Positions 12,310 through 63,630 of a stretch of 64,000 nucleotides of DNA are shown one piece after another. The position numbers were made by a program, and so were the translations under genes. The notes under the pieces were generated by a model. That model worked only from the letters and a program-made list of their open reading frames with translations, was not told where the DNA came from and searched no databases. Positions within the stretch are counted from its first letter, which is position 1. Every line of letters begins with the position of its first letter. This DNA comes from Mobula hypostoma (lineage: Eukaryota), in contig NC_086097.1 in NCBI RefSeq assembly GCF_963921235.1, positions 120,158,001 to 120,222,000 on the forward strand, written 5' to 3'.

Positions 12310-12432
12310 ATCTTGGCCTGAAACATCAACTGCTTATTCCCCTCCATAGATGTTGCCTGCCTGAACTGTTGAAGTCCTCTTGCATTTTGTGTGTGTTACT
12401 CTGGATTTCCAGCATCTGAAGAATATCTTGTA
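12310..12432 (+). mobile_element. Short Penelope-terminus unit with only the 3' half of the hammerhead
   Basis: TCTTGGCCTGAAACATCAACTG...GATTTCCAGCATCTG matches the family terminus. Confidence 0.65.
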
Positions 12433-17204: not shown

Positions 17205-17430
17205 TATAACACATACAAAATGCTGGAGAAACTCAGCAGATCAGACACCATCGATGGAGAGGAATAATCAGTCAATGTTCAGGGCTGTGACCCTTTATTA
17301 TGACTGGAAAAGAAGGGGAAAGAAACTAGAAAAAAAAGGTGAAGGAAAGGGAAGGAGTCTAGCTGGAATGTGACAAGTGAATCCAGGGGGAAGGTAGGTG
17401 GGTGGGGGATTGGAGAAGAAGTGAAAAGCT
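17205..17430 (-). mobile_element. Penelope-like 3' terminus with decayed hammerhead
   Basis: ACATACAAAATGCTGGAGAAACTCAGCAG terminus followed by a purine-rich UTR. Confidence 0.65.
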
Positions 17431-18755: not shown

Positions 18756-19900
18756 CAATTCGCACAACACGCTGAAGGAACTCAGCAGGTCAGGCAGCAT
18801 CCGTGGAAAGGATGAGTCAACGTTTCGGGCCGGAACCGTTCATCAGGACTGTAGGGGGAAGGGTCAGAGACCCTATAAAGGAGGTGGGGGGAGGGTGAGA
18901 AGGAGAAGGCTAGAAGGTTCCAGGTGAAAAACCAGTAAGGGGAAAGATAAAGGGGTGGGGGAGGGGAAGCAGGGAGGTGATAGGCAGGAAAGGTGAAGAA
19001 GGAATAGGGGAAAACACAATGGGTAGTAAAAGGAGGCGGAACCATGAGGGAGGTGATAGGCAGCTGGGGGAGGGGGCAGAGTGTGATAGGGATAGTGGGA
19101 GGGAGGGGAATGGAATTACCGGAAGTTGGAGTATTCAATGTTCATACCAAGGGGCTGGAGACTACCTAGACGGTATATGAGGTGTTGCTCCTCCAACCTG
19201 AGTTTAGCCTCATCATGGCAGTAGAGGAGGCCATGTATGGACATATCTGAATGGGAATGGGAAGCAAAGTTGAAGTGGGTGGCTACCGGGAGATCCTATC
19301 TGTTCTGACGGACGGAGCCGAGGTGCTCGACGAAGCAGTCCCCCAATCTGCGTCGGGTTTCAACGATGTAGAGGAGGCCGCACTGGGAGCACCGGATGCA
19401 ATAGATGACCCCAACAGACTCACGAGTGAAGTGTTGCCTCACCTGGAAGGACTGTTTGGGGCCCCGATTGGTGGCAAGAGAGGAGGTGTAGGGACATTTG
19501 TAGCTCTTACGTTTACAGGGATAAGTGCCAGGTGGGAGATCCGTGGTGAGGGACGTGTGGATCAGGAAGTCAAGGAGGGACCGATCCCTGTGGAAAGCGG
19601 AGAGGGGTGGAAAGGGAAAGATGTGCTTAGTGGTGGGGTCCTGTTGAAGGTGGCGGAAGTTGCGGAGGATAACGTACTGGATCCGGAGGCTGGTGAAGTG
19701 GTAGGTGAGGACAAGGGGAACTCTGTCCCTGTTGTGGTGGCGGGAGGATGGGGTGAGAGCCAAAGTGCAGAAAATGGAGGAGATGTGGGTGAGGGCATCA
19801 TTGATGACAGCAGAAGGGAAACCACAATCCTTAAAGAAAGAGGACATTTGAGATGTCCTGGAACAGGAAGCCTCATCCTGGGAGCAGATGCGGCGGGAAA
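18756..19900 (-). mobile_element. 5'-truncated Penelope-like element (GIY-YIG endonuclease) with 10-bp TSD
   Basis: ORF 19296-19940 RVPLVLTYH...GVIYCIRCSQCGLLYIVETRRRL..FVEH; TAATTGGGAG at 18746-18755 and 19901-19910. Confidence 0.92.
18815..18851 (-). ncRNA. Minimal type I hammerhead ribozyme (core intact, one helix II mismatch)
   Basis: Minus strand: CAGTC CTGATGA A CGG TTCCGG CCC GAAA C GTT GACT. AGTC/GACT helix I; GUU cleavage triplet. Confidence 0.7.
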
Positions 19901-21023
19901 TAATTGGGAGTGCATTCATCCTCAAAACAATTAGATGCATAAACCAATGTTTATTTTGACTATTATTTTTGCCACTCTGTCATACTTCGGGACACGATAG
20001 ATTTATCAAATCTTTATCTAAAGATGGCATGAATTATTATTAATTGATACTGGCATCCTTCATAATTAGCTTAGCTGTTAAAACACCTCTTGATATGGTT
20101 CTATTATACAGAGAATTAGAATAAATTTTTATTATAGTTTCAGAATTAATAACACAGAAGATGTGCTAAACTTGTATAAACTTTGGCTTTTTCACATATG
20201 GGGTTATTTCAACTCAGTCTGTAACTCAGATGCAGCAATAGAGCTTTTCATCTTGGCTTAAAGAGATAGAGAGGATGTAAGCCAATGTTTTAGCGTCAAT
20301 TCACATCCAGTAGCCCTGCAGAAAAGTGCAAATAAACACGGAAAATCAATTTGCCGTGCTTATCCTACCATCTGCCAACTTGCTATTATTTCCAAAATAA
20401 TCTGGTTATATTTCTTACATCTTAGTCTATATCTATGACCCTTTCTTAAGGCTTACTAAATAATCTGTGACAATCCACTTGGTTTGACCTTACTTATTTT
20501 TAAAAAATGTTTCTTACTACACATAATTTATTCCACACTGATATAAAGCCTAGTTCTTGAACATCCTGTTATGTTTCAAAGGAAGCAGAATTAAGTGAAT
20601 CAATAGGTTAAAGATTGAAACTAATGGATAAGATCAGAGAAGGCTGAGCCAGAGGACTAGACCCAGAATGGGTAGCTGTTTGCCAGACACACAGCAGTGA
20701 GTATGGTAGCAGATAGATTCAAAGTGACAGAAGGTTAAAAGTACCTCACAGGGACGAGTCTTGGGACTATTGCTGTTCACATATGACATTAATATATTTG
20801 GACATTGGAATCAAAATTTTTTTTCAAATTTGCAGATTGAAATGATAATCAATACTGAATAGGAAGGTAGCAAATAACAGCAGTACGTTTAATTGATAAA
20901 ATGTCTCCACTGATACTGATGACTTGCAGAATATTTCAAACTGCTCTGTTTTTTTATGTTTCCAGTACTTAAGTTTTCTATATAATCACCAGATTATATA
21001 CACCAGAGTCTGAGAGTCAGAGT

Positions 21024-22444: not shown

Positions 22445-25400
22445 TTAGAAAAGCCTACAGCACAATCCAGGCCTTTCAGCCCACAAAGCTGTCTGAACAT
22501 GGCCTTACCTGAGAAATTACCTAGGGTTACCCATAGCCCTCTAATTTTATGTGCTCCATATACCTGTCTAGGAGTCTCTTAAAAGACCCTATCATCTCTG
22601 CCTGCACCACTGTCACTGGCAGCACATTCCACGCACTCACCACTCTCTGCGTAAAAAACTTAACCCCAATATTTCCTCTGTACCTACTTCCAAGCACCTT
22701 AAAACTATGCCCTCTCGTGCTAGCCATTTCAGCCCTGGGAAAAAGCCTCTGATTATCCACATGATCAATGCATCTCATCATCTTGTACACATCTATCAGG
22801 TCACCTCTCATCCTCCGTCACTCCAAGGAGAAAAGGCCAAATTCACTCAATCTATTCTCATAAGGCATGCTTCCCAATCCAGGCAACATCCTTGTAAATC
22901 TCTTCTGCACCCTTTCTATGATTTCCACGTCATTCCTATAGTGAGGCAACCAGAACTGACCACAGTTCTCCAAGTGGAGCCTGACCAGGGTCCTATGTCG
23001 CTGCAACATTACCTCTCAGCTCCTTAACTCAATCCCATGATTGATGAAGGCCAATGTACCGTATGCTTTCTTAACCACAGAGTCAACCTGCGCAGCAGCT
23101 TTGAGTGTCCTATGGACTCGGACCCCAAGATCCCTCTGATCCTCCACACTGCCAAGAGTCTTACCATTAATACTATATTCTGCCATCATATAAGACCATA
23201 AGACCATAAGACAAAGGAGCAGAAGTCGGCCATTTGGCCCATCGAGTCTGCTCCGCCATTTTATCATGAGCTGATCCATTCTCCCATTTAGTCCCACTCC
23301 CCCGCGTTCGCACCATAACCTTTGATGCCCTGGCTACTCAGATACCTATCAATCTCTGCCTTAAATACACCCAATTACTTGGCGTCCACTGCTGCCCGTG
23401 GCAACAAATTCCATAGATTCACCACCCTCTGACTAAAAAAATTTCTTTGCATCTGTTCTGAATGGGCGCTCTTCAATCCTTAAGTCATGCCCTCTCGCAC
23501 TAGACTCCCCCATCATGGGAAACAACTTTACCATATCCACTCTGTCCATGCCTTTCAACATTTGAAATGTTTCTATGAGGTCCCCCCCATTCTTCTAAAC
23601 TCCAAGGAATACAGTCCAAGAGCGGTCAAACGTTCCTCATATGTTAACCCTCTCATTCCCGGAATCATTCTAGTGAATCTTCTCTGTACCCTCTCCAACG
23701 TCAGCACATCCTTTCTTAAATAAGGAGCCCAAAACTGCCCACAGTACTCCAAATGAGGTCTTAGCAGCGCCTTATAGATCCTCAACGTCACATCCCTGCT
23801 CCTGTACTATATTCCTCTAGAAATGAATGCCAACATTGCATTCGCCTTCTTCACTACCGACTCAACCTGGAGGTTAACCTTAAGAGTATCCTGTACGAGG
23901 ACTCCCAAGTCCCGTTGCATCTCAGAACTTTGAATTCTCTCCCCATTTAAATAATAGTCTGCCCGTTTATTTCTTCTGCCAAAGTGCATAACCATACACT
24001 TTACAACATTGTATTTCATTTGCCACTTCTTTGCCCATTCTTTCAATCTATCCAAGTCTCTCTGTAGACTCTTCGTTTCCTCAGCACTACCGGCCCCTCC
24101 ACCTATCTTCGTATTGTCAGCAAACTTAGCCACAAAGCCATCTATTCCATAATCCAAATCATTGATGTACAACGTAAAAATAAGTGGCTCCAACTCGGAT
24201 CCCTGTGGAACACCACTGGTAACCGCAGCCAACCAGAATAGGATCCCTTTATTCCCACTCCCTGTTTCCTGCCAATCAGTCAACACCCTATCCATGTATG
24301 TAACTTTCCTGTAATTCCATGGGCTCTTATCTTGTTAAGTAGCCTCATGTTTGGCACCTTGTCAAAGGCCTTCTGAAAATCCAAATATACAACATCCACT
24401 GTATCTCCCTTGTCTAGCCTACTTGCAATTTCCTCAAAAAATTGTCATAGGTTTGTCAGGCAGGATTTTCCTTTAAGGAAACCATGCTGATTTCTGCCTA
24501 TCTTGTCTTATGCCTCCAGGTACTCCATAACCTAATTTTTGACAATCAACTCCAACAACTTCCCAACCACCAATGTCAAGCTAAGAGGTCTTTAATTTCA
24601 TTTTTGCTTCCTTTCTCCCTTCTTAAATAGTGGAGTGACATTTGCAATTTTCCAGTCCTCCGGAACCATGCCAGAATTTACCGACTTTTGAAAGATCATA
24701 GCTAATGCCTCAGTAATCTCCACAGCTACTTCCTTCAGAACACGAAGGTGCATTCCATCTCGTCCAGGAGATTTATCTACCTCTAGACTATTCTACTTCC
24801 TGAGTACGTTCTCTGTCATAATTGTGACTGTGCACACTTCTCTTCCCTGCCACCTTTGAGTGTCCGGTATACTGCTGATGTCTTCCTCAGTGAAGACTGA
24901 TGCAAAATACTCATTCAGTTCCTCTGCCATCTCCTTATCTTCCATTACAATTTCTCCAGCATCATTTTCTATCGGTCCTATATCTACTCTCACCTGTCTT
25001 TTACTCTTTATATACTTGAAAAAGCTTTTAGTATCCTCTTTGATATTATTTGCTAGCTTCCTTTCATAGTTTCTCTTTTCCCTCTTAATGACCTTCTTAG
25101 TTTCCTTTTGTAAGCTTTTAAAAACTTCCCAATCCTCTGTCTTCCCACTACTTTTTGCCTTATTGTATGCCCTCCCTTTTTCTTTAACTTTGGCTTTGAC
25201 TTCTCTTGTCAGCCACGGTTGCATCCTTTTTCCATTCGAAAATTTCTTCTCTTTTGGAATATACCTGTCTTGCACCTTCCTCACTTATCACATAAACTCC
25301 AGCCACTGCTGCTCTGCCATCCTTCCAGCCGGTGTCCCTTTCCAGTCAACTTTGGCCAGTTCCTCTCTCATGCCACTACAATTTCCTTTACTCCACTGAA

Positions 25401-26790
25401 ATACCGACACATCAGATTTCGGTTTCTCTTTTTCAAATTTCACAGTGAACTCAATCATGTTATGATCACTGCCTCCTAAGGGTTCCTTCACCTCAATCTC
25501 TCTAATCACCTCCGGTTCATTACACAATACCCAATCCAGTACAGCCGATTCCCTAGTGGGCTCAACAACAAGCTGTTCTAAAAAGCCATCTCGCAGACAT
25601 TCTACAAATTCTCTCTCTTGAGATCCAGTGCCGACCTAATTTTTCCAATCTACTCGCATGTTAAAATCCCCCAAAATTATCATAACACTGCCCTTCTGAC
25701 AAGCCTTTTCTATTTCCTGTTGTAATTTGTAGTCCACATCACTGCAGCTGTTTGGAGGCCTGTATATAACTGCCATCAGGGTCCTTTTACCCCTGCGATT
25801 TCTTAGCTCAATCCATAAAGATTCTGCACCTTCTGATCCGATGTCATCTTTTTCTAATGATAGATATAATGATAGATAGATAGATAAATATAGTTCATAT
25901 TTGACCTACCAAAATGAACCACCTCAGACTTCTCTGGGTTGAACTCCATCTGCCATTTCTCAGACCAGTTTTGTATCCTATCAATGTCTCAATGTAACCT
26001 CTGACAGTCCTCCACACTATCCACAACACCTCCAACCTTTGTGTCATCAGCAAATTTACTAACCCATTCCTCCACTTCTTCATCCAGGTCATTTATAAAA
26101 ATCATGAAATGTAGGGATTCCAGAACAGATCCCTGAGGCACACCACTGGTGACCAACCTCCATGTAGAATATGACCCATCTACATCCTCTCTTTGCCTTC
26201 TTTGGGCAAGCCAGTTCTGGATCCACAAAGGAATTTCCCCTTGGATCCCATGGCCCCTTACTTTCTCAATAAGCCTTGCATGAGGTACCTTATCAAATGC
26301 CTTGCTGAAATCCATATACACTACATCTACTGCTCTACCTTCATTAATGTGTTTAGTCACATCCTCAAAAAATTCAATCAGGCTTGTAAGGCACAGCCTG
26401 CCTTTCCCAAAACCATGCTGACTATTCTTAATCATATTATGCCTCTCCAAATGTTCATAAATCCTGCCTCTCAGGATCTTCTCCATCAACTTGCTAACCA
26501 CTGAAGTAAGACTCACTGGTCTATAATCTCCTGGGCTATCTCTACACTTTTTCTTGAATAACAGAACAACATCCGCAACCCTCCAATCCTCCAGAACCTC
26601 TCCCATCCCTATTGATGAAGCAAAGATCATCGCCAGAGGTTCAACAATTTCCTACCTCGCCTCCCACAGTAGCCTGGGGTACATCCCGTCCGGTCCCGGT
26701 GACTTATCCAACTTGATGTTTTCCAAAATCTCCTGCACATCCTCTTTCTTAATATCTACATGCTCAAACTTTTCAGTCCGCTGTAAGTCA
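22445..26790 (-). mobile_element. CR1 LINE (host copy; segments 22445-23191 and 25895-26790)
   Basis: ORFs 25989-26630 (YRPVSLTS, DFSKAFD, GVPQGS, KFADD), 23016-23297, 22818-23009 and 22527-22811 are collinear once the nested copy is removed. Confidence 0.9.
23192..25894 (-). mobile_element. Nested 2.7-kb CR1 LINE (endonuclease end through RT and 3' UTR)
   Basis: ORFs 25288-25527 (PLGGSDHNMIEF), 24793-25284, 23807-24295 and 23573-23791; (TGGTCTTA)n tail; TCATAT duplicated at 23186-23191 and 25895-25900. Confidence 0.92.
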
Positions 26791-27574: not shown

Positions 27575-27910
27575 TATACATCAGAGTAACAGGCCATTCT
27601 GGCCCAATGAGCCTGCAGCACCCAGATACACACAAATGACCAATTAACCCACTAACCCTCCCCATCCTGACGAAGGGTCTCAGCCATAGATGCTGCCTGA
27701 ACTGCTGAGGTCCTGCACCATTTTGTGTGTGTTACTGTTGATTTCCAGAATCTGCAAAATCTCTCGAATTTATAATCTACTAATGCCTAGATCTTTGGGA
27801 TGTCTGAGGAAAGCCAAATAGTTATAGCAAGAGTGTTTAAACCCCTTACAGACAGTGGTGGGAATTGAACCCAGGTTACCAGTACTGTAAACCATTATGC
27901 TATCCTTCAC
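27575..27910 (-). mobile_element. Decayed V-SINE interrupted by a plus-strand hammerhead unit (about 27662-27768)
   Basis: B-box complement GGAATTGAACCC at about 27862. The insert begins TCCTGACGAAGGGTCTCAGCC with the GAAA segment deleted. Confidence 0.6.
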
Positions 27911-28950: not shown

Positions 28951-28968
28951 AAGCCTATTTTAAAATTA

Positions 28969-29102
28969 AACACAGAGATTCTGCAGATGCTGGAAACCCA
29001 GAGCAATACTCACAGAGTGCTGCAGGAACTCAGCAGTTCAGGTAGCATCTACGGAGAGGAATAAACAGTAGACATTTCCGGCCCAGATCCTTTATCAGGA
29101 CT
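28969..29102 (-). mobile_element. Short stand-alone Penelope-terminus/hammerhead unit, decayed
   Basis: Minus strand AGTCCTGATAAAGGATCTGGGCCGGAAATGTCTACTG...GTTTCCAGCATCTGCAGAATCTC. Confidence 0.75.
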
Positions 29103-32089: not shown

Positions 32090-32400
32090 TCGAAAACTCA
32101 AGAAATACTGCAGTTGTTTGAAATCTGGAGTAACACACACTAAATGCTGGAGCAACTCAGCTGGTCTGGTGCCATCTATATCTATGGAGAGGAATAAACC
32201 GTTGACATTTTGGGCTGAGGCCTTTCATCAGGAGATATGAACAATCAACCTGCTGGAGGAACTCAACAGGTCAAGCAGCATTTGTGTGGGTAAAGTGCTG
32301 TCGATATTTCAAGTCAAGTACCTGCATCAGGACCTGCTGTGTTCCTCCAGCAGATTATTTACTGAGCCAGATATCAACATCTGCAGTCTCTTTGTTTCCA
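32090..32400 (-). mobile_element. Two adjacent short Penelope-terminus/hammerhead units; the second is partly palindromic
   Basis: Minus strand CCTGATGAAAGGCCTCAGCCCAAAATGTC (about 32232-32204) and GTCCTGATGCAGGTACTTGACTTGAAATATCGAC (about 32333-32300). Confidence 0.7.
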
Positions 32401-34049: not shown

Positions 34050-37025
34050 TTATTGACTTTATTTATTTCTTACATCCTTCACATACATGAGGAGTAAAAA
34101 TCTTTATGTTACGTCTCCGACTAAATATGCAATGCGCAATCCTAGTAATTTATATTAATTTATAATAAATAGAAAAGTCAATGTCACATAGAAATACACT
34201 CAAATCAGCGTGAGTTAATCAGTCTGATGGCTTGGTGGAAGAAGCTGTCCCGGAGACTGTTGGTCCTGGCTTTTATGCTGCGGTACCGATTCCCAAATGA
34301 TAGCAGCTGGAATAGATTGGGGTTGGGATGACTTGGGTCCCCAATGATCCTTCGGACCCTTTTCTCACACCTGTCTCTCTAAATGCCCTGAATAGCGGGA
34401 AGTTCACAACTACAGATGCACTGGGCTGTCAATAGACAATAGACAATAGGTGCAGGAGTAGGCCAGTCGGCACTTCGAGCCAGCACCGCCATTCACTGTG
34501 ATCATGGCTGATCATCCATAATCAGTATCCAGTTCCTGCTTTATCCCCATAACCTTTGATTCCGCTATCTTTAAGAGCTCGATCCATCTCTTTCTTGAAA
34601 GCATCCAGAGACTTGGCCTCCACAGCCTTCTGGGGCAGAGCATTCCATATATCCACCACTCTCAAGGTGAAAAAATTTTTCCTCCACTCCGTTCTAAATA
34701 GCCTACCCCTAATTCTTAAACTGTGGCCTCTGGTTCTGGACTCACCCATCAGCGGGAACATGCTTCCTGCCTGCAGCATGTCCAATCCCTTAATAATCTT
34801 ATATGTTTCAATAAGATCCCCTCTCAGCCTTCTAAATTCCAGAGTATACAAGCCCAGTCACTCCAATCTTTTGACATATGACAGTCCAGCCATCCCGGGA
34901 ATTAACCTTGTGAACCTACGCTGCACTCCCTCAATAGCAAGAATGTTCTTCCTCAAATTTGGAGACCAAAACTGTACACAATACTCCAGGTGTGGCCTCA
35001 CCAGGGCCCTGTACAGCTGCAGAAGGACGTCTTTGCTCTTATACTCAATTCCCCTTGTTATAAAGGCCAGCATGCCATTAGACTTTTTCACTGTCTGCTG
35101 TACTTGCATGCTTGCTTTCAGTGACTGATGTACAAGAACACCTAGTTCTCGTTGTGCTTCCCCTTTTCCTAACTTGACTCTCTTTAGATAATAATCTGCC
35201 TTCCCGTTCTTACCACCAAAGTGGATAACCTCACATTTATCCACATTAAACTGCATCTGCCATGCATCTGCCCACTCACCCAGCCTGTCCAAGTCACCCT
35301 GCATTCTCATAACATCCTCCTCACATTTCGCACTGCCTCCTAGCTTTGTGTCATCGGCAAATTTGCTAATGTTACTTTTAATTCCCTCACCTAAATCATT
35401 AATATATGTTGTAAACAGCTGCGGTCCCAGTACTGAACCCTGCAGTACCCCACTGGTCACCGCCTGCCATTCCGAAAGGGACCCGTTAATCGCTACTCTT
35501 TGTTTTCTGTCAGCCAGCCAATTTTCAATCCATGTCAGTACTCTGCCCCCAATACCATGTGCCATAATCTTGCCCACTAATCTCCTATGTGGGACTTTAT
35601 CAAAGGCTTTCTGAAAGTCCAGGTACACTACATCCACTGGCTGTCCCTTGTCCATTTTCATAGATACATTCTCAAAAAATTCCAGAAGATTAGTCAAGCA
35701 CGATTTCCCCTTCATAAATCCATGTTGATTCGGACCAATCCTGTTACTGCTATCCAGATGTGTTGTAATTTCATCTTTTATAATTGACTCCAGCATCTTT
35801 CCCACCACCGACGTCAGGCTAACTGGTCTATAATTCCCGGTTTTCTCTCTTCCTCCCTTCTTGAAGAGAGGGACAACATTAGTCACCCTCCAATCCACAG
35901 GAACTGGTCCTGAATCTATAGAACATTGGAAAATGATTACCAATGCGTCCACGATTTCTAAAGCCACCTCCTTAAGTACCCTGGGATGCAGACCATCAGG
36001 TCCCGGGGACTTATCAGCCTTCAGACCCAACAGTCTATCCAACACCATTTCCTGCCTAATATAAATTTCCTTCAATTCGTCCATTACCCTAGGTCCTTTG
36101 GCCACTACAATATGAGGGAGATTGTTTGTGTCTTCCCTAGTGAAGACATATCCAAGTACCTGCTCAACTCGTCTGCCATTTCCTTGTTCCCCATAATAAC
36201 TACACTCGCTTCTTTCTTCAAGGGCGCAATTTTGGTCTTAACTATTTTTTTTTCCTTTTCACATACCTAAAGAAGCTTTCACTATTCTCCTTTATATTCT
36301 TGGCTAGTTCACCTTCGTACCTCATTTTTTCTCCACGTATTGCCTTTTTAGTTACCTTCTGTTGCTCTTTAAGAGTTTCCCAATCCTCCGGCTTCCCACT
36401 CTTGTCCACATCACTCTCTGCAGAATCCTGTGATTAAGGGAGGTACAGTTCCCAAACCAGGCAGTGATGCAACCAGTCAGGATGCTCTCAATTGTGCCCT
36501 GTTGAAATTTCTTAGAATTTGGGGGCCCGTACCAAACTTCCTCAACCAACTGAGATGAAAAAGTTGCTGTTGTGCAGACCACATGAGGTCCTCAGTGATG
36601 TGGATGCTGAGGAACTCAAAGCTGTTTACCCTCTCAACCCCAAATCAACTGATGTCACTAGGGGTTAGCCTGTCTCCATTCCTCCAGGGATCCACAACCA
36701 GCTCCTTTGTTTTTGCAACATTAAGGGAGTGGTTGTTTTCTTAACACCACTATGGCAGACAGATGACTTCTTCCCTGTAGGCCGCCTCTTTATTATTTGA
36801 AATTAGGCCAATCAATGTAGTGTCGTCGGTAAATTAGTTAGCAGATTGGAGCTGCGGATGGTGACACAGTCATGGGTATACAGGGAGTAAAGGAGGGGAC
36901 TCAGTACACAGCCCTGAGTGGCTCCTGTGTTGAGAGTCAGAGGGGTGGAGATGAAGGAGCTCACTCTTTCCACCTGCCAGCAATCTGACATGAAGTCCAG
37001 GATCAAGCTGCACAAGGCAGGGTCA
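34050..37025 (-). mobile_element. Rex1/Babar-type LINE (segments 34050-34430 and 36403-37025) split by a CR1
   Basis: ORF 36812-37015 (LNTGATQGCVLSPLLYSLYTHDC) and IESILTGCITAWFGN. Host sequence rejoins across TGTC at 34427-34430 / 36403-36406. Confidence 0.85.
34431..36402 (-). mobile_element. Young 5'-truncated CR1 LINE with a 415-aa uninterrupted RT frame (34858-36105)
   Basis: KSPGPDG, NYRPVSLTS, DFQKAFD, QGSVLGP and KFADD motifs; (TATTGTC)n tail. Confidence 0.95.
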
Positions 37026-45300: not shown

Positions 45301-45383
45301 GGTGAAGTGACCACTGATAGCCTGCCCCGGGGAGCGGTAGAAGAGATTGTGGGTTCTCTGGTTCCAGTGGTTGGACGAGGAGG

Positions 45384-48300
45384 TTGATAGAGAAGATGTT
45401 GAAGCTGGAAATTGTCTGTTCCACTGATGAGTTTGATGTGGGTTCTTCCAGGAGCACTTGCCACACTATCTGGGTGACGAAGGACACCCCATTTAGAGAG
45501 AGGTCATGGAGACTGGCCCCTGCAGAGGTGGAAGATGATTGTCAGCATTTATGTAAGTTGAAGGAAGCTGGGATCATCATTGAGTCCCAAAGCCCCTATG
45601 CATCCCCAATAGTAGTGGCCCGGAAGAAGAACAGGAAGGTACGCATGTGTGTAGACTATAGTACTCTGAACAGGTGCACTGTGCTGACCAGTATACAGTC
45701 CCAAGCATCGAAGACATGCTGGCTTGTCTGAGTGGTGCGAAGTGGTTCAGTGTGCTAGACTTGAGGAGTAAATATTACCAGGTCCCCATGAATGAGACTG
45801 ACAAAGAGAAGACAGCATTTACTATATATGTCCCCTGGGATTCTTCCAGTTTGAAAGGATGCCCTAGGACATATCGGGAGGCCCTGCAAACTTCCAGCAG
45901 GTCATGGAGAAGACAGTGGGGGATATGAACTTGCTTGATGTATTGGTATATCTGGATGACCTCAAAGTATTTGGATCCACCTTGAAAGAACATGAAGAGA
46001 GGTTACTGAAGGAGCTGGGCTGCCTGAAAGCTGAAGGGTTAAAACTTTCCCTAGACAAGTGCCAGTTCTGCAAAACATCTGTTAGCTATGTTGGACACAT
46101 AGTCTCCGATGATGGAGTAACTGCAGATCCAGCTAAGACAGAGGCAGTGACCACTTAATCAAGACCCCAGATTGTGAGCACTATACGCTCGTTCCCCAGA
46201 TTCTATGGATACTATCGGAGGATCATGAAGGGCAATGCGAAAGTGAGACACCCGTTGAATCAGCTTCTTTGCGGTTACCCTCCCTTGGGGAAGAAAGGCA
46301 GGGGGGGAATTGTCAGGAGGGTGGAGTGTAACTTAGCCCATCGGAGCCCTTTGGACTGAGGTGAGCTGTATACTGTGAGGAGGCTTTTCAGTCGCTGAAG
46401 GACCTGCTGACCCAGGTGCCGGTGCTGGCTTTTGCGGATCCCCAATTGCCGTATGTACTGCACATGGATCCCAGCCGAGAGTGTTTAGGGGGAGTCACGT
46501 ATCAGAATCAAGGCAATGGCTTGAGATCCATTGCATTTGTCAGCCAGAGTCTGTCATCCTCGGAGAAAAGGTATTCACACACAAGTTGGAATTTCTGGCA
46601 TTGCAATGGGCAGTGGTGGATAAGCTGAGTGATTACCTCTGTGGGGCCAAGTTTGAGGTGAGGACTGACAACAACCTCTAACATGTATCTTGACCATGGT
46701 GAAACTGGATGCCACAGGGCATCGGTGGTTGGCAGTGTTGTCTGCCTATGATTTCAGCCTGAAGTACCGGCTGGGGAGCAGGAGCATTAATGCTGATGCT
46801 TTGTCCCGACGAGCGCATGAGGAACTGGTCAGGGACGAGGAGTGGGAGAGTGTACCTGCCCCGGGGGTGAAGGCCCTGTGTCAGTTTGCCATCACCATGA
46901 AGGCAGAGTGAAAGGAGGGGCAGGATTAAGCAGTGGATCAATTGGGGGCTTCTGATGACACCATTCCCCTAGTTTACTGTAACCCGACAGCACTGAAGAC
47001 AAATCAGCTGCCAGAATTGAGTTCTGGGGAAGTGGCAGCTGCTCAGCGAGATGATCCGGGCATTGGTACCATTTGATCAGCAGTCGAAAAGGGAGACATG
47101 GCTCAGGCAGAGAAGACGAAACATGCGGCGGAGCCTCCATTACTGAGAGAATGGGCTTGGTTGCAGTTGCAGAACCAGATCCTATACCAGGTCACGTCAC
47201 CTCCAGACCGACCTCAGTGTTGCCAGCTGGTTCTGCTGGAGAATTATCGGAGGACGGCGTTGAAGTCACTTCATGATGATTCTGGACATTTGGGGGTTGA
47301 GAAGACCTATGGATTGCTCAGAGATCAGTTTTACTGGCCCCGAATGAAATTGGAGGTCGAAGAATACTGCGAGTCATGCATTTGATGTGTATGCCGGAAG
47401 ACGCTGCCTGTGCAGGCAGCTCCCTTGTCCCACCTCAAAGGTTCAAAGGTACAATTTAATGTCAGAGAAATGTATACGATATACATACTGAAATGCTTAT
47501 TCTTTGTAACTATCCATGAAAACGGAGGAGTGCCCCAAAGAATGAACGACAGTCAATGTTAGAACTCCAAACTCTCTCCCAGCTCCCCCCTCCTGAGTGT
47601 AAGCGGCAGCGAGCAACAATCCCCCCTCCCCCTACTGGCAAAAAAAAGCATCGGCTCCCGTCACCGAGCACTCAAGCGTGAGCAAAGCAATAGCAAAGAC
47701 ACAGACTTGCAGTTACCCCAAACTTGCAGTCTCACCCCGTGTTCGACATACTGCAGGTTCTCTCTCTCCTTAATAAGGGAGAAAGAGGTGTCGCCATTTT
47801 CCCAGCGAATGGGGAGACATAACAAACAACTTGCTGGTTTACGATGTTAAAAGTCCGTTATGTTGCTTTTTTCGAGCTCTGTGCCTGAAGATCGCAAAGA
47901 TCCCGGGTCTCCAGGCACACAGCAGATATCTTGACTCCCCCGATGACACATGGGTTTCCTCTCGTGACACTGACCCTCAATCTGCCCATCTCCAGAGCAC
48001 CGAGCTCTTAGGCTTTTGAATTCAATCCAGACTCTTAGGCCGAGTCCTTGTTGTGCCGAACAACAGCCAGTTATGGAACCCTGAGAGCAGGTCCCATTCC
48101 CACAAAGAACCAAAGTGCGTGTGTAACTCCAGGTCAGTGTCTTCCAAAGAACCCTGAAAGGGAAAATAGAGATATTAAAGATTGAAATAGAGCTGTTTCC
48201 AAAGATGCAAGGAAAGGATTCGCCATTGGGAACCATTAACTCTCCTAAGCTCCGCCTTCAAAATAAAAAGAGTGCGGGGTCCCTGGACCTAGTGTGTATG

Positions 48301-49060
48301 GATTTCCTGTCAATAGAACCTGATGCCAGCAACATGGCAAATGTCTTAGTCATCTCAGACCACTACGCCAGATGTGCACAGGCTTTTCCTACCAAGAACC
48401 AGAGGGCGTCCACGGTGGCCAAAGGATTTTGGGAGAAGTATTTCATTTATTATGGGCTTTCCCAGGCAGGTACATAGTGATCAGGGACGGGATTTCGAGA
48501 GCAGACTCATCCATGAGTTACTGGGCATGCTTGGAGTTGAGAAGTCGAGGATCCCCAGACTGAGAGGTTCGATCGGACTTTGCTAGACATGCTCGGGATA
48601 TTGGAGATGAGCAAGAAGAGCAGGTGGAGTCAACAGAGTGGACACCTGGTCCACAATTACAACTGTACCCCAAATGAAGCTACCGGGTACTCGCCATGTT
48701 ATCTGATGTTTGGGCGCGAGGTGAGGATGCCCATTGACCTTTGTTTTGGGACTGATGATGGCGACTTACCACCGAAGACTTATCTGAAGTATATGTCTGA
48801 CATGAGAAGAGAGCTGAAAAGGGCTTATGAATTAGCTGGGGTCATGGCTGCCAAGCAGAATCAAGGGAATAAGAGGAGGTATGATCAAAACGTTAGGTTC
48901 TGTCAACTCCAGCCAGGAGACCAAGTCCTGAGAAACATAAGTTAGCTGACCGCTGGGCAGCTACGCCCTATGTGGTGGAGAGTCAGATGCCAAACCTACC
49001 AGTTTTCCGGGTGAAACCAGAGGATGGGAATGGGCCTGTCAAGATTCTCCATTGGAACCA
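45384..49060 (+). pseudogene. Gypsy pol remnant (RT, RNase H, integrase), frameshifted
   Basis: SPYASPIVV.RKK...RMCVDY; LDLR..YYQ; VYLDD; KLEFLAL.WAV; GHLGVEKT...FYWP; DLVCMDF; HSDQGRDFES; GYSP.YLMFGR. Confidence 0.92.
47436..48268 (-). mobile_element. Non-coding retroposon (about 830 bp) inserted in the Gypsy integrase
   Basis: Integrase APLSH|...|SAGSLDLVCMDF is split; the insert ends on the minus strand with ATTAAA..CCTTTGAACCTTTG, a LINE-type tail. Confidence 0.75.
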
Positions 49061-50569: not shown

Positions 50570-53330
50570 ATAAGACATATGAGAAGAATTAGGCTACCTG
50601 ACCCATTGAGTTTTCTCTGCCATGCCATCATGGCTGATTTATTAACAATTTAATTTCTATTCCCCTGCTTCCTTCCTGTAACCTTTGATGCCCAGACTAA
50701 ATAAGAATCTATCAAACTCTGCTTTAAGTATACTCAATGACTTAGCCTCCACAGCAATCCGTGGCAATTAGCTCCACAGATTCACCACACTCCGGCTAAA
50801 GAAATTCCTCCTGATCTCTGCTGTAAATGAACATTCCTCTATTCTGAGGCTGTGCCCTCAGGTCCTAGACACACCCACTATAGAAAACATACTCACCACA
50901 TCCACTCTGTCTATGCCTTTCAGTATTCAATAGATTTCAACGAGATCCTCCTCATTCTTTTAAACTCCGGCAAGTACAGGCACAGAGCCGTCAAATGTTC
51001 CTCATACGTTAAACCTTTCATTCCCGGAATCATTCTCGTGAACTTCCTCTGAACCCTCTCCAATGTCAGCACAAAATTGCTCATGATATTTCAAGTTCAT
51101 TCTGACCAGGGTCTTATAAAGCCTTAGCATTATATCCTTGCCCTTATATTCTAGTCCTCTCAAAATGAATGCTAGCACTGCATATGCCTTCTTTAACACT
51201 GACTCAATCTGCAAGTAACATTTAAGGAATGCTCCATGAGGACTCCCAAGTCGCTTTGTACCTTGTATTTTTGAATTTTCTCCCCATTTAGAAAATAGTC
51301 TATGCCTTTATTCCTTCTATCATAGTGAATATCATACACTTCCCTACACTATATTCGATCTGCCATTTATTTGCCCAATCTCCCAAATCTGTCTGCATCC
51401 TTCTGCAGACTCCCTGCTTCCTCAAAACTACTTATATTTGTATTCTCTCAAACTAAGTCACAAAGCTATGAATTCCATCATCGGAATCATTGACATACCT
51501 TATAATGTGAAAAGAAGCAGTGTCAGTACCAAGCCTTGAAGAACACCACTTGTCACATCAGCCAACAGAAAAGGCCCCCTAATAGAACATAGAACATGGA
51601 ATAGTACAGCACAGTACAGGTCCTTCAGCCCACAATGTTATGCCGACCCTCAAACCCTGCCTCCCATATAAGTCCCAACTTAAATTCCTTCATATACCTG
51701 TCTAGTAGTCTCTTAAATTTCACTAGTGTATCTGCCTCCACCACTGACTGTGGCAGTCATACAACGCACCAACCACTCTCTGAGTAAAAAACCTTCCTCT
51801 AATGTCCCCCTTGAACTTCCCGCTCCTTACCTTAAAGCCATGTCCTCTTGTATTGAGCAGTGGTGCCCTGGGGAAGAGGCGCTGGCTATCCACTCTATCT
51901 ATTCCTCTTATTATCTTGTATGCCCTTATCATGTCTCCTCTCATCCTCCTTCTCTCCAAAGAGTAAAGCCCTAGCTTCCTTAATCTCTGATCATAATCCA
52001 TACTCTCTAAACCAGGCAGCATCCTGGTAAATCTCCTCTATACCCTTTCCAATGCTTCCACATCCTTCCTATAGTGAGGCGACCAGAACTGGACACAATA
52101 CTCCAAGAGTGGCCTAACCAGAGTTTTATAGAGCTGCATCATTACATCGTGACTCTTAAACTCTGCCCCTCGACTTATGAAAGCTAACACCCCATAAGCT
52201 TTCTTAACTACCCTATCCACCTGTGAAGCAACTTTCAGGGATCTGTGGACATGTACCCCCAGATCCCTCTGCTCCTCTACACTACCAAGTATCCTGCCAT
52301 TTACTTTGTACTCTGCCTTGGAGTTTGTCCTTCCAAAGTGTACCACCTCACACTTCTCTGGGTTGAACTCCATCTGCCACTTCTCAGCCCACTTTTGCAT
52401 CCTATCAATGTCTCTCTGCAATCTTTACACTATGTCTCTCTACACTATCCTCAACACCACCAATCTTCGTGTTTTCTGCAAACTTGCCAACCCACCCTTC
52501 TATCTGATTCTTTCACTACTGCCATTCAGCCAATATTCTATCCATGCTAGTATCTTTTCTCTAATACCAAGGACTTAGCTTGTTAAGCAGCCTCATGTGT
52601 GGCGCCGTGTCAAGGCCTTCTGAGAATCCTAGTAGACAATATCCACTGAATCTCTTTTGTTTCTCCTGCCTCTTATTGGCTCAAAGAATTCCATTAGATT
52701 TATGATGCAAGAAAACCATGCTGATTTTGGCCTATTTTATCATGCACCACTGAATAACCTGAAGCCTTATGCTTAAAACAGGACTCCAATATCTTCCCAA
52801 TCACTGAAGTCAAGCTAACTAGTCTATAATTTCCTTTTTGTGCCTCCCTCCCTTGAAAAGAGGAGAGGCATTTGCAATTTCCCAGTGTTCCTGAACTATT
52901 CCAGAATTTAGTAGTTCATGAATCAGAATGCTGGGGTATAGTCCATCTGTTCTAGGTGACTTATCTACTTTCAGAACTTTCAGCTTTCCAAGCACTTCCT
53001 CCTCAGTAATAGCGATTAGACTCACTTCTGTCCCTGAACACTCTCAAGTTACTGGCATACTGCTAGTGTCTTCCATAGTGAAGATTGACAATGAAATATG
53101 CTTATGTTTGTCCGCCATTTCTTTATTCCCCCATTAATATCTCACTACCATCATTTTCCGGCGGTCCAATATACACTCTCAACTCTCTTTTACTCTTTAT
53201 AGGTCTGAAATAATTTTTGGTATCCTCTGTGATATTATTGGCTAGCTTACCTTCATATTTCAACTTTTTTCTCCTTATGGCTATTTTAGTTGCCTTTTAT
53301 TGCCTTTTATTGGTTTTTAAAAACTTCCCA
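50570..53330 (-). mobile_element. Decayed CR1 LINE hosting a younger CR1 3' end (about 51581-52500)
   Basis: Host ORFs 51002-51214 and 52819-53025; nested ORFs 52038-52421 and 51723-52022 with a (TGTTCTA)n tail at about 51581. Confidence 0.88.
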
Positions 53331-53350: not shown

Positions 53351-54020
53351 AGCAACACACGCAAAATGCTGGAGGAACACAGCAGGCCAGGCAGCATCTA
53401 TGGGAAAAAAGTACAGTTGACCTTTGGCAGGACTGGAGAAAAAAGGCTGAGGAGTAGGTGTAAAAGGTGGGTGAGGGGAGAGAGCAACACAGGGTGATAG
53501 GTGAAACCTGAAGGGGGAGGGATGAAGTAAAGTGCTGGGAAGTTGATTGGTGAAAGAGATACAAGGTTGGAGAAATGGGGAGTCTGATAGAAGAGGACAG
53601 AAGGCCATGGAAGAAAGAAAAGGAGGGAGTGCACCAGAGGGAGGTGGTGAGTGGGCAAGAAGATAATGTGAGAGAGGGAAAGGGGGATGGGAAATAGAGA
53701 AGGAGAGGGAGGGGGGCATTCATGGAATTTTGAGAAATCAATGTTCATGTCATCATGTTGGTGGCTACCTAGTTGGAATATAAGGTGTTGTTCCTCCAAA
53801 CTAAGTGTGGAGGAGGCCATGGATAGACATATCAGAACAGCAATAGGAAGTGGAATTAAATTGGTGGCCACTGGGAGATCCTGCTTTTCCTTCTGACTTT
53901 TTCAGTAGGTTCTCAGCGAAGCAGTCTCCCAATCTACTTTGGGTCTCTCCAACATACAGGATGCCACACCGTCAGCACCAGATACAGTATATGACCCCAG
54001 CAGACTCACAAGTGAATATT
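53351..54020 (-). mobile_element. Penelope-like element 3' portion with the hammerhead core deleted
   Basis: LEEQHLIFQLGS.Q...MNIDFS in ORF 53398-53871; ESAGVIYCIWC..CGILYVGET near 54010-53945. Confidence 0.85.
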
Positions 54021-56619: not shown

Positions 56620-57945
56620 GGAGTGGAACCCCTTGATTGGTGAAAGAAGTAAAGGGCTAGAGAAGGGGGAATCTGACAGGAGAGGACAGAGTTCCATGAA
56701 AGAAAGGGAAGGTGGAGGAGCACCACAGGGAGGTTATAGGCAGTAAAGAAATAAGGTGAGAAGGGGAAATGGGAATGGGGAATGGTGAAGATGAGGAGGG
56801 CAATTATAGGAAGTTTGAGAAATCAACATTCGTGCCATCAGGTTGGAGGCTACCCAGATGGAATACAAAGTGCAGCCCTCTTACCTTGAGAGTGGCTCTA
56901 TGGTGGCAGTTGAGGAGGCCGTGGACCGACATGTTGGAACGGTAATAAGAAAAAGAATTGAATTGGGTGACTACCGGGGGTCCCATTTTGTGTGGCAGAT
57001 GGAGCGAAGGCACTTGGCAGAAGGACTGACTGGAGCCCTGAATGATAGTGAGGGGAGAGGTGTAGGGGCAGGCGTGTCATTTGTTCTGCTTGCAAGGATA
57101 AGTACTGGGAGGGAGATCAGTGGAGAGGGACAAATGGACAAGCAAGTCACATAGGAAGCGATCCCTGCAGAAAGTAGAAAGTGGGGGGACGGGGGAGGGA
57201 AAGATGTGCTTGGTGATGGGATCCCATTGGAGATGGTGGTAATTATGGAAAATTATGTGCTGGATGCCCTGGTGGGGTGGCGGGTGGATGGATTGAGGGC
57301 AGACGTTCATGAAGTTGGAAAGTTAAGAGTGAGGGCAGTACTAATGGCAGAGTAAGGAAAACCCCTTTCCTTGAAGGAGGAGGATCTCTCATTAGTTCTG
57401 GAATGAAAGTCTCATCCCGAGAGCAGATACAATGGGGCCAAAGGAATTAAGGAAAGGAATGGCATTTTTACAAGCAACAGGGTGGGAAGATGTATTTTTC
57501 AGATGCTGAGGGAAGCAGTGAGTTGAGTAAATATACCAGTAGATAAACTCTCCAAAGATAGACACAGAGAGATCGAGAAAGGGATGGGAAATACCAGAAA
57601 TGGACCAGGTAAATTTGAGGGCAGGGTGGGAGTTGGAGGCAAGGTAAATGAAGTCAACAACCTCAGCATGGGTGCAGGAAGCAGCACCAATGCAGTCGTC
57701 AATGTAACATTTGAGTAATCAGGGGATGATACCAGTGTAGGCTTCGAACATAGACTGTTCCATGTAAACGTCAAAAAAGTAGGCATAGCTGGAACCCATG
57801 CAATTGCCCATGGCTACACCTTTTGTTTAAAGGAAGTGGGAGGAGCTAAAGAAGAAATTATTGAGAGTGAGGACCAGTTCTGCTAAACAGAGGAGAGTGG
57901 TGGTGGAGGAGAATTGGATGGGTCTGATGTCCAGAAAGAAGAGGT
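56620..57945 (-). mobile_element. Penelope-like element fragment (RT C-terminus through GIY-YIG)
   Basis: GVAMG (about 57820), YIDDCIGAAS (about 57706-57678), and ORFs 57077-57310 and 56804-57013 (LGSLQPDGTNVDFS). Confidence 0.85.
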
Positions 57946-58462
57946 TTCCTCTGAGGCTGGGTGGGACTACAACCAGAGATTAGGGGTCAAAGGTCAAAGA
58001 TGAGAAGTTTAAGCGGAACATAAGGGGTAACTAATTCACTTAGAGGATTTGTGAGAGTGTGGAACGAGCTGCCAGCACAAGTGGTGCATGCGAGCCTGAT
58101 TTCAACATTGAAACCTATAGAAAGGCCAAGATAGAGTGGATGTGAAGATGATGTTTCTAATAATTGAGGAATCTAGGACCAGAGGGCACAGCCTCAGAAT
58201 ACAAGGCTAGAGCTAAGGAGGAATTCCTTTAGTTAGGGGTGGTGAATCTTTTAGAATTCATTGCAACAGATGGCTGCAGAGCATGAGTCATTGGCTATAT
58301 TTAAGGTGGAGGGTGATTGATTCTTGGTAGACAAGGGTGTCAAAGGTTATGGGGCGAAGACAGGAGAATGGGGTTGATATGGATAATATATTAGCCATGA
58401 TCAAATAGTGGAGCAGACTTGATAGGCTGAATGGCCTAATTCTGATCCTTATGGTCTTATGT
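57945..58462 (+). mobile_element. CR1 3' fragments
   Basis: RVWNELPAQVV- and ESRTRGHSLRI-like remnants; CR1 UTR and (TGGTCTTA)-type tail. Confidence 0.75.
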
Positions 58463-58802
58463 TCTAAAACAAAATGTAATTTCTTCAAGAAAAAACATAC
58501 ATGTGAAGGTAATTGATTAAGTAATATTTAAATTACATTTATAAAATAAACCTATAGTTACATTAGTTATTGATGAAGATAAAAGGCAGAAGAAATTATG
58601 CAACAGAAACTAAGTATTGTGGTTACAAACTATTTAAGCATAATAGCAGTAATTCTGAAGTAGGCTGGAAAATAACTAATGTAAAGTGACTGTAGAACAG
58701 TTATCCTTACACTCATTCAATAAAAAATAATAATACTTATTACTAAGTGTTTTTTTGCGATTATCAGAGCCATAACTAAAAGCCAAGACAGATTCAGAAG
58801 TA

Positions 58803-59031
58803 ACACATGTCAAAGTTGCTGGTGAACGCAGCAGGCCAGGCAGCATCTCTAGGAAGAGGTACAGTCGACAATACGGGCCGTGACCCTTCTTTCAGTTAGT
58901 CCTGACGAAGGGTCTCGGCCCGAAACGTCGACTGTACCTCTTCCTAGAGATGCTGCCTGGCCTGCTGCATTCACCAGCAACTTTGATGTGTGTTGCTTGA
59001 ATTTCCAGCATCTGCAGAATTCCTCGTGTTT
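58803..59031 (+). mobile_element. Palindromic short Penelope-terminus retroposon with 15-bp TSD
   Basis: Inverted arms 58802-58889 / 58907-58994 (81 of 88 complementary); ACAGATTCAGAAGTA at 58788-58802 and 59032-59046. Confidence 0.9.
58898..58933 (+). ncRNA. Intact minimal type I hammerhead ribozyme
   Basis: AGTC | CTGACGA | A GGG TCTCGG CCC | GAAA | C GTC | GACT; predicted cleavage after C58929. Confidence 0.8.
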
Positions 59032-59046
59032 ACAGATTCAGAAGTA

Positions 59047-59142
59047 CTCATGAAGGGTCTCAGCCTGAAACGTCCACTGTTCATTCGTCTCCATAAAGCT
59101 GCATAACCTGCTGAGTTCTTCCAGCATCTTATGTGTGTTACA
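59047..59142 (+). mobile_element. Older short hammerhead unit at the same target site
   Basis: CTCATGAAGGGTCTCAGCCTGAAACGTCCACTG...; followed by ACAGATTCATAAG (59143-59155). Confidence 0.8.
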
Positions 59143-59739
59143 ACAGATTCATAAGGGGAAGATTCTGCCTGACACATCTCACCTGAGACATTGACAAACC
59201 AGACTGGATATGAAAAATCTTACCACAGAATGAGGCTAAATGGAAAAGGATATTGAATTGACTGTAACTCAGGGTATGATTACATCTTCTCCTTGAGGCC
59301 AGTGCAAGCTTGAATTCCAAAAGATTTCAGATAAATTTCTCAGGAAAGGCCATTCATCAAACTCAAAACTTTACAGCTCGAAGGAACACAGGGCTAGAAA
59401 ACAATGAATAATTATTTAAAAAGCTATACCAAATTGATTGGATAACTTTCCCGGTACTTGGTTTTGTGAGTACAATTTGATTCTCTAACACTGGCCACTG
59501 TTTTGGAAATGCCACTCTGATTGCATCTGGGTCTGATATGGAAGGATCACTGCACAAGATTGCTAAAAGTTGACATCTTCAAAAGGCAATACTTCAAAAA
59601 GACGGCATCCATCTTTAAGGACACCCATCACCCATAACCTGCCTTATTCTAATTACTACCTTCAGGGAGGAGACACAGGAACCTGAAGATCCACTCTCCA
59701 CTTTTTAGGAACAGCTTCTTCCCCTACAACACATTATAT

Positions 59740-60212
59740 TCCATCTGGGTAGCCTCCAATGGCATGGTTGGCAATTTCTCAAACTTTCGGTAATGCCTCG
59801 CCCCCGCCCTTCACCATTCCCCAAACCTTTTTTCCTCTCTCATCTTATCTCTTTGTCTGTGCATCACCTGCCTCTGGTGCTCCTTACCCTTCTTCTTTCT
59901 TCCATGGCCTTCAGTCCTCTCCTATTATATTCCCCGTTATCCAGCCCTGTATCCCTTTCACCTATCACTTCTCATCTCTTTACTTCACCACTCCTCCACT
60001 CCTGGATTCACCCTTCACCTTGTGCTTCTCGCTCCCCTCCCTGCACCTTTTAAATCTACTCCTTATCAATTTTTCTCCAGCCCTTCTAAACGGTTTTAAC
60101 CTGAAGCATCGACTGCACTCTTTTTCATCGGTACTGCCTGGCCTGCTGAGTTCCTCCAGCATTTTGCGTGTGTTGCTTGGACTTCCAGCATCTGCAGATT
60201 TTCTGTTGTTCA
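59740..60212 (+). mobile_element. Penelope-like 3' end with decayed hammerhead, preceded by a Rex1 fragment (about 59575-59730)
   Basis: FHLGSLQ remnant, pyrimidine-rich UTR and terminus ...TTCCAGCATCTGCAGATTTTC. Confidence 0.8.
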
Positions 60213-61980: not shown

Positions 61981-62254
61981 GTTCTAAGGGACATCTTTCT
62001 ATTCCAAGACTGTGCGCTCTGGCCTTAGACAGCCCCACTGTAGGAAACACCATCTCCACATCCATTCTATCTAGGCCTTCCGACATCCGAAAGGTTTCAA
62101 TAAGATTCCCCCATCATTCTTCTAAACCCCAGCAGGTGCAAGCCCAGAGCTTCTCATATGTCAACCCTTACATTCCTGGGATAATTTTTGTGAAACTTCT
62201 CTGGACCATCTCCAATGTCAGCACATAACTGCATACAATATTTATTAGTGCCTC

Positions 62255-63630
62255 ATTGTCCGGGTAATTATAGACTAGTGAGCCTTATGTCTGTGGTGGG
62301 AACACTGTTGGAAAAGATTCTTAGAGATAGGGTCTATGGGCATTTAGAGAATCGTGGTGTGGTCAGGGACAGTCAGGGTGGCTTTGTGAAGGGTAGATCG
62401 TGTCTAACAAGCCTGGTAGAGTTCTTTGAGGAGGTGACCAGGCATATAGATGAGGGTAGTGCAGTGGATGTGATCTATATGGATTTTAGTAAGACAAGGT
62501 TCCACGCTGTAGGCTTACTCAGAAAGTCAGAAAGCATGGGATCCAGGGAAGTTTGGCCAGGTGGATTCAGAATTAGCTTACCTGCAGAAAGCATAGGGTC
62601 ATGGTGGAGGGAGTACATTCGGATTGGAGGATTGTGACTAGTGGTGTGCCACAAGGATCAGTTCTGGGACCTCTACTTTTCGTGATTTTTATGAACGACC
62701 TGGATGTGGGGGTAGAAGGGTGGTTTGGCAAGTTTGCAGATGACGCAAAGGTTGGTGGTGTTGTAGATAGTGTAGAGGATTGTGGAAGTTTGCAGAGAGA
62801 AATTGATAGGATGCAGAAGTGGGCTGAAAAGTGGCAGATGGAGTTCAACCCAGAGAAGTGTGAGGTGGTACACTTTGGAAGGATAAACTCCAAGGCAGAG
62901 TACAAAGTAAATGGCAGGATACTTGGTAGTGTAGAGGAGCAGAGGGATCTGGGGATACATGTCCACAGATCCCTGAAAGTTGCCTCACAGGAGATAGGGT
63001 AGTTAAGAAAGCTTATGGGGTGTTAGCTTTCATAAATCGAGGGACAGAGTTTAAGAGTCACAAAGTAATAATGCAGCTCTATAAAACTCTGGTCAGGCCA
63101 CATTTGGAGTACTGTGTCCAGTTCTGGTCGCCTCACTATAGGAAGGATGTGGAAACATTGGAAAGGGTACAGAGGAGATTTACCAGGATGCTGCCTGGTT
63201 TAGAGAGTATGGATTATGATCAGAGATTAAGGGAGCTAGTGCTTTACTCTTTGGAGAGAAGGAGGATGAGAGGAGACATGATAGAGGTATACAAGATATT
63301 AAGAGGAATAGATAGAGTGGACAGCCAGCACCTCTTCCCCAGGGCACCACTGCTCAATACAAGAGGACATGGCTTTAAGGTAAGGAGCGGGAAGTTCAAG
63401 GGGAATATTAGAGGAAGGTTTTTTTTACTCGTAGAGTGGTTGGTGCGTGGAATGCACTGCCTGAGTCAGTGGTGGAGGCAGATATACTAGTGACATTTAA
63501 GAGACTACTAGACAGGTATATGAAGAAATTTAAGGTGGGGGGTTATATGGGAGGCAGGGTTAAGGGTCGTCAGAACATTGTGGGCCAAAAGGCCTGTACT
63601 GTGCTGTACTATTTTATGTTATATGTTCTA
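62255..63630 (+). mobile_element. CR1 LINE RT to 3' end
   Basis: ORFs 62215-62637, 62601-63002 (GVPQGSVLGP, KFADD) and 63020-63490. Confidence 0.92.

Follow-up and report, generated by a model that had tools for sequence, protein, structure and literature searches.

The class of hammerhead ribozyme considered here has been in print since 2014, and minimal hammerheads in the pseudo-LTRs (pLTRs) of Penelope-like elements (PLEs) were reportedly also described by Lunse et al. in 2017. Minimal hammerheads (min-HHRs) in the pLTRs of metazoan PLEs were published in 2014 by Cervera and De la Pena, whose monomers were inactive and whose dimers cut weakly (PMC4209133), and a review covers them as well (PMC6765202). 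In the Poseidon element of Anolis carolinensis (PAc), the hammerhead is protein-assisted and cut only with the protein (Frangieh et al. 2024, PMC11167929). PAc hammerhead mutants left insertion in vitro unaffected, two internal start sites of the reverse transcriptase (RT) yield the tail, and both strands are extended (PMC11167929). For canonical EN+ PLEs, an inverted pLTR pair with a tail at one end has been described qualitatively (PMC3846280, PMC8557442). A preprint defines animal non-LTR retrozymes as tandemly repeated units of which two or more in a row contain a hammerhead; it also reports eight of nine Xenopus dimers without cutting and lists PLE-related hammerhead repeats for one chondrichthyan (bioRxiv 10.64898/2026.07.22.740005). 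A literature search by title and abstract found no paper dedicated to PLE hammerheads in cartilaginous fishes, with preprint supplements, Repbase and most subscription papers outside its scope.

We analyzed a hammerhead motif at positions 58898-58933 of the window, by which we mean the whole 64-kb stretch of DNA under study. The motif is very probably the pLTR min-HHR of a highly abundant Neptune-type PLE, left in a 229-bp head-to-head insertion where folding predictions show it closed off and where it is likely inert. The find extends the known PLE class of ribozymes by one host lineage. The points of specialist interest are a strict pairing of insertion ends and two lineage-level changes in or near the core. 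With its intact young elements, its strict rule of one tailed and one untailed end, and its natural core variants, the family is useful as a test bed, and the variants in particular allow one to ask whether a PLE hammerhead must cut at all.

The hammerhead motif and the insertion that carries it

The features of the motif and of its surroundings are as follows.

58898..58933, + strand: minimal type I hammerhead motif, identified by its sequence, a strict descriptor and 4,891 exact genomic copies
58898-58901 / 58930-58933, + strand: helix I, AGTC / GACT (sequence)
58902-58908, + strand: hammerhead core CUGACGA (sequence)
58909, + strand: extra A between positions 9 and 10.1 (sequence)
58910, + strand: start of helix II (sequence)
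58910/58921, + strand: G10.1-C11.1 pair, present in the window motif
58922-58925, + strand: GAAA (sequence)
58925-58928, + strand: palindrome ACGU (15.2-16.2), without a stable helix III (sequence)
58929, + strand: C17, with the predicted cut after 58929 (sequence)
58886..59031, + strand: forward arm, a 5'-truncated pLTR of the young C11.1 lineage that ends at the long (tailed) end
58798..58889, - strand: inverted arm, a second pLTR end, untailed
58788..58802, + strand: left copy of the target-site duplication, 15 bp, 100% identical to the right copy
59032..59046, + strand: right copy of the target-site duplication, 15 bp
59043..59141, + strand: older pLTR copy from a different lineage, its hammerhead decayed at G5 and in helix I

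An earlier note on this DNA had described an intact minimal hammerhead here, and on rereading the sequence we found all of the claimed parts: the core CUGANGA, the GAAA and the NUH triplet are present in type I order. Its description of helix II as GGG/CCC with a 6-nt loop held for the three G-C pairs and had to be revised for the loop, since a helix of four base pairs (three G-C and one U·G) closed by a CUCG tetraloop folds better. Folding also allows a fifth pair, U·G, in helix I. When the 36-mer is folded in isolation, the predicted minimum-energy structure pairs the core with the cleavage triplet, giving an inactive rod of unexceptional stability (z -0.96).

A strict min-hammerhead descriptor found 58898-58933 as its sole match in the 64-kb window and gave no matches when the window was reversed or in any of 100 windows simulated by a Markov-1 model. 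Across the 3.48-Gb genome there are 4,891 exact copies of the 36-mer and none of its reversed control; on the strength of these controls, we rejected a chance motif. The Rfam check proposed by the earlier note was negative: no hammerhead family was matched in the window at E<=5, and the five weak matches were unrelated. The miss is likely a consequence of the missing helix III. A loose core pattern with 15 matches in the window, against 7.9 expected, was too permissive and was set aside.

The motif shares much with published PLE min-HHRs: type I topology, a full core, the extra nucleotide between 9 and 10.1, G10.1-C11.1 (in the window copy), a palindromic 15.2-16.2 without loop 3, a helix I of 4-5 bp, placement in both pLTRs, and copies that are mostly dispersed and single. 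Helix II has 4 bp here versus 7-8 bp in Schistosoma families (PMC4209133).

The motif sits within a 92-bp inverted repeat (58798-58889 / 58907-58998, 91% complementary), to which the earlier note makes no reference, and the insertion as a whole consists of 229 bp in which two pLTR ends stand head to head between perfect 15-bp direct repeats. The forward arm begins about 12 nt 5' of the motif, the inverted arm starts within the hammerhead core with GAAAC altered at three places, and the two join over a 4-nt overlap (58886-58889). The far end of the inverted arm shares about 5 nt with the target duplication. In folding calculations, helices I and II had a pair probability of 0.0 in RNA containing both arms and of 0.66-0.88 once the inverted arm was removed. 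The inverted arm is thus predicted to pair out the motif and fold it shut, and this copy is likely inert where it sits, with no self-cutting in place. A transcript starting inside the insertion could escape the inverted arm, so that the motif may fold.

There is no intact same-strand hammerhead partner near the motif; the only same-strand neighbor is the decayed older copy at 59043, which was rejected as a dimer partner on account of its changed G5 and helix I. While type I hammerheads of PLE pLTR origin are also found in animal non-LTR retrozymes, the window locus consists of two inverted arms and a single intact motif rather than a series of tandem units with complete hammerheads. The young pair was inserted at the 5' edge of the older pLTR copy (59043-59141). 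A 9-nt repeat at 59032-59040 and 59143-59151 resembles a target duplication of that older copy and, taken with the insertion of the young pair, makes it likely that the same site was hit twice.

The host family and its other copies in the window

Many among the first 30 of the 4,891 exact copies are continuous with upstream GIY-YIG coding sequence. A search with part of the RT turned up 35,330 candidates; scores were taken for 150 of them. Twelve regions were examined for long frames. Half of these regions (6/12) contain a 1,043-codon frame with RVT_1, GIY-YIG, DKG and YIDD; the RT and EN parts are separated by a CX4CxxC linker, located at residues 910-918 of the full-length protein. The full-length proteins matched RVT_1 (E 4e-5) and GIY-YIG (E 2e-4) slightly below the Pfam curated cut-offs, and GIY-YIG scored above its cut-off in one of five fragments. 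A CX2-5CxxC linker marks Neptune and Nematis elements (PMC8557442), and we classify the host family as a Neptune-type EN+ PLE on its protein sequence, with the clade set by this linker motif, in which the ORF differs from that of PAc. Copies that keep the 1,043-codon frame intact suggest that the family has been active recently or still is.

In five of the 12 regions, the motif region lies in both repeats, 3,507-3,515 nt apart, which supports the earlier note's description of a Penelope-derived repeat carrying a PLE-type minimal hammerhead; the remaining long-ORF regions, without the motif in both repeats, are 5'-truncated or partial. The upstream repeats span 213-856 nt and are near-identical to the downstream repeats, as in the variable-length partial tandems of the canonical EN+ PLE unit (PMC3846280, PMC8557442). 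As in PAc, the hammerhead lies near the junction of pLTR and ORF, although the likely start codon is about 140 nt past the cut site here and inside the motif in PAc.

The family is very large. Besides the 4,891 exact 36-mers, the genome holds 40,223 copies of a neighboring 31-mer and 90,841 matches to a loose 27-letter pattern, both with reversed controls of 0. In random genome stretches totaling 400 kb, the strict descriptor gave 6 matches and a profile search gave 96 pLTR fragments, which extrapolate from that sample to about 50,000 and about 800,000-830,000 genome-wide, respectively. The exact, loose and strict counts point to a larger copy number than the 4,000 of coelacanth and the 9,000 of Xenopus, which were obtained under different search rules (PMC4209133). 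Sequence variety is low here, unlike in published PLE min-HHRs.

Several other pieces of the family lie in the window.

18815..18851, - strand: second hammerhead motif, from a separate PLE lineage, G10.1 and C17 changed
19119..19916, - strand: broken PLE ORF that lacks its 5' portion and retains the 3' part with the zinc-finger linker and GIY-YIG region, by tblastn
53351-53435, - strand: hammerhead copy of the A6C lineage, with an ORF end at 53722-54016
56813-57955, - strand: broken PLE piece reaching from the RT into the endonuclease, with about 50% identity to the young protein
4258-4405, 5532-5666, 12311-12424, 17207-17305, 27665-27772, 28967-29102, 32122-32333 and 60075-60210: decayed pLTR copies of older lineages, none of which passes the strict descriptor

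Pfam reported no PLE domain in three broken window fragments and none for 19296-19979; the broken PLE pieces in the window were identified by tblastn with the intact protein. The earlier note had placed a second, near-intact hammerhead at 18815-18851 in the 3' end of a PLE. Its location was right, about 270 nt behind a PLE C-terminus with 75% tblastn identity to residues 770-1043 of the full-length protein, but the copy is less intact than described there. G10.1 is C, which breaks the closing pair of helix II, C17 is U, there are other differences too, and the strict descriptor is failed. Both of these changes are damaging, and an intact relative (genomic locus L047) keeps G10.1 as well as C17.

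The window probably contains fragments of other repeats. Broken frames at 1346-2543 (-) and 45321-48945 (+) resemble gag/protease and RT/integrase pieces of LTR retrotransposons, and many more at 23016-26651, 34522-36237, 51723-52424 and 62194-63490 resemble reverse transcriptases of CR1/L2-type LINEs.

Constraint and natural core variants

The earlier note had named a core no more conserved than its flanks as evidence against a self-cleaving family. Instead, the mean difference among five lineage consensuses was 8% in the motif against 18-41% in the flanks (upstream 41%, spacer 40%, tail 41%, and 48 nt downstream 18%), and 29 of 36 columns were invariant in the motif against 12 of 41 upstream. 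The numbers of copies behind the consensuses were 13, 13, 40, 40 and 2; one more group, with 3 copies, was dropped. From these sequences, we read the hammerhead motif as constrained across lineages, in a test that is biased towards agreement because a profile covering the motif gathered the copies and CpGs were restored by rule. Since the region 3' of the motif is also conserved (18%), the constraint may concern promoter function or RT binding of the pLTR. No two-sided compensatory changes were found in the helices among the five consensuses, which vary little, so the helices rest on conservation and not on covariation.

Positions G5, G8, G12, A13, A14, A15.1, U16.1 and C17 are identical in all five consensuses, as is the palindrome ACGU, and the changes fall at positions 6, 7, loop 2 and 11.1. 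A conserved core with variation at these sites is the pattern expected of a catalytic core.

Two of the variable sites define lineages. By hand count, A6C occurs in 11 among the first 100 of the 90,841 loose matches, and A6T or A6G in none. All 11 of these copies have their own common flanks, and several stand behind their own GIY-YIG ends (loci L193-L202). A6C is carried by all copies of this older PLE lineage, which makes up about one-tenth of loose matches, judging from the first 100. In another hammerhead, A6C lowered the rate in Mg2+ to about 4e-6 per minute, with Mn2+ cleavage spared (PMC7151607).

The second variant is U11.1. It was hand-counted in 68 among the first 100 of the 90,841 loose matches, against 10 with the opposite CpG decay, and in 56 of 94 young copies chosen without regard to the motif, against 3 with CA. 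CpG decay alone was therefore rejected as its origin (TG to CA ratios of 68:10 in the first 100 and 56:3 in the 94). U11.1 is also present in 21 of the 22 arms in long-ORF regions (L081-L092), and non-CpG divergence is 2.6% in the U11.1 group and 3.9% in the C11.1 group, to which the copy at 58898-58933 belongs. The change leaves a G·U or a shifted A-U closing pair in helix II (-2.5 and -2.2 versus -5.1 kcal/mol). The youngest lineage, with intact ORFs, has G10.1·U11.1 and a weakened helix II. A literature search on G10.1·U11.1 and G10.1-C11.1 found no rate for U11.1, and neither A6C nor U11.1 as a lineage-fixed variant was found in the part of PMC4209133 drawn on here.

Insertion ends and the role of cleavage

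In 189 young arms, the 3' ends have a bimodal distribution with about 35 nt between the two groups. All 37 inverted head-to-head pairs, the window locus included, combine one tailed (long) end with one untailed (short) end, and the tailed end shows no bias in side, being on the left in 19 and on the right in 18. Long ends account for 47% of arms, for which independence predicts that about half of the pairs would be mixed (binomial p ~6e-12). Most of the 37 pairs have a flanking duplication of 10-19 nt if one mismatch is tolerated. The adjacent inverted copy, the tail at one end and the short target duplication are those of the canonical EN+ PLE unit (PMC3846280, PMC8557442), from which the family differs in degree only: palindromic units of very small size occur often, and in the sample the rule of a tail at one end holds strictly. 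Two RT start regions, a tail of 30-40 nt, extension of both strands and a cut site without ends are all shared with PAc. In PAc, however, the strands were alike in their start sites in vitro, whereas here the two arms differ in 37 of 37 pairs.

With 37 pairs, short palindromes flanked by duplications are common enough to bring to mind a non-autonomous MITE-like or retrozyme-like hairpin that is amplified as a unit. We give this idea almost no credence and rejected it. The junctions vary between pairs, with 5' ends, taken from BLAST alignments, from +48 to about -3,100, which means that each pair arose separately; there is no tandem array at the window locus; and the arms of many copies run on into PLE coding sequence.

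The 5' ends were studied in 125 arms whose selection took no account of the motif. Of the arms at risk, 29 of 103 stop within a 12-nt stretch at the motif's 5' edge, a rate of 0.0235 per nt compared with 0.001-0.003 further upstream. Another 14 of 117 end within the motif body, over 14 nt. Only 3 of 124 end at most 2 nt from the cut site (0.0048 per nt), which is not enriched. As ends do not gather at the cut site, the templates would have carried an uncut or religated motif. The RNA likely starts just ahead of the motif, at an initiator-like sequence, and RT stalling or microhomology at the junctions could also contribute to the cluster.

These ends weigh on the proposal that the family is an efficient self-cleaving system, in which dimers cut at C17, or religated circles, are the obligatory template and dispersed copies cut host transcripts. 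Every core position is intact in the window motif, the motif is constrained across lineages and lies in both pLTRs, and a circle model has been proposed (PMC4209133); a religated circle would also leave copies with intact motifs. We nevertheless consider the proposal improbable. Besides the 3/124 ends at the cut site, it has to accommodate the amplification of the A6C lineage (11 among the first 100 of the 90,841 loose matches), whose core change left almost no Mg2+ cleavage in a different hammerhead (PMC7151607). The 125 arms, from loci of 1.3-10 kb, include only 2 same-strand neighbor pairs. The double hammerhead was predicted at -16.3 kcal/mol and is not the lowest-energy state, since a pair of misfolded monomers reaches -27.0 and an extended duplex -35.3 in the same nearest-neighbor model, which excludes tertiary energy.

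At the other extreme, the motif may have ceased to be a ribozyme in this genome and be kept as a structural or promoter element, for instance with its palindrome serving in RNA pairing, or as a site where protein binds at the RNA start. The amplified A6C lineage, the presence of U11.1 in 21 of 22 long-ORF-region arms and in the less diverged group, and the concentration of junctions and 5' ends in and just 5' of the motif are all in line with such a role. Yet eight positions are fixed in five consensuses with changes confined to 6, 7, loop 2 and 11.1, U11.1 retains a G·U or A-U closing pair, and the hammerhead of the anole PLE is able to cut in the presence of its own protein (PMC11167929). 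We therefore regard a purely structural motif as quite unlikely.

Between the efficient ribozyme and the structural element lies the reading that we favor, in which the hammerhead cuts slowly and the insertion step proceeds without it. The RT-GIY-YIG protein would nick the DNA on both strands, the nicks being staggered by about 12-15 nt, and reverse transcription would be primed at two sites about 35 nt apart, 3' of the hammerhead, one for each strand. Both cDNAs would copy back through the uncut hammerhead, often halting near its 5' edge, the likely RNA start, and would then be joined head to head, producing units like the 229-bp insertion. In intact elements, the hammerhead would cut slowly, depending on a dimer or on the protein, and would trim a minor share of transcripts; its cutting would be unnecessary for insertion. 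The pairing rule, the 5'-end cluster, and the A6C and U11.1 lineages hint that cutting is dispensable for insertion.

A stronger version, put forward tentatively as a possibility that we would not bet on, holds that cutting is dispensable for transposition altogether, given that the A6C lineage reached about 10,000 copies and that the intact lineage has a weakened helix II, and that every two-armed insertion is made by one asymmetric protein dimer, which primes the two nicked strands at different sites on the pLTR RNA while the palindromic hammerhead serves as a pairing or docking module. If this were true, the unsolved mechanism of PLE insertion would become directly testable in a vertebrate, given the hundreds of thousands of copies and the intact young elements.

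In one inverted pair, in locus L139 (at about 750), the junction of the arms falls precisely on the helix III palindrome, a possible source of microhomology.
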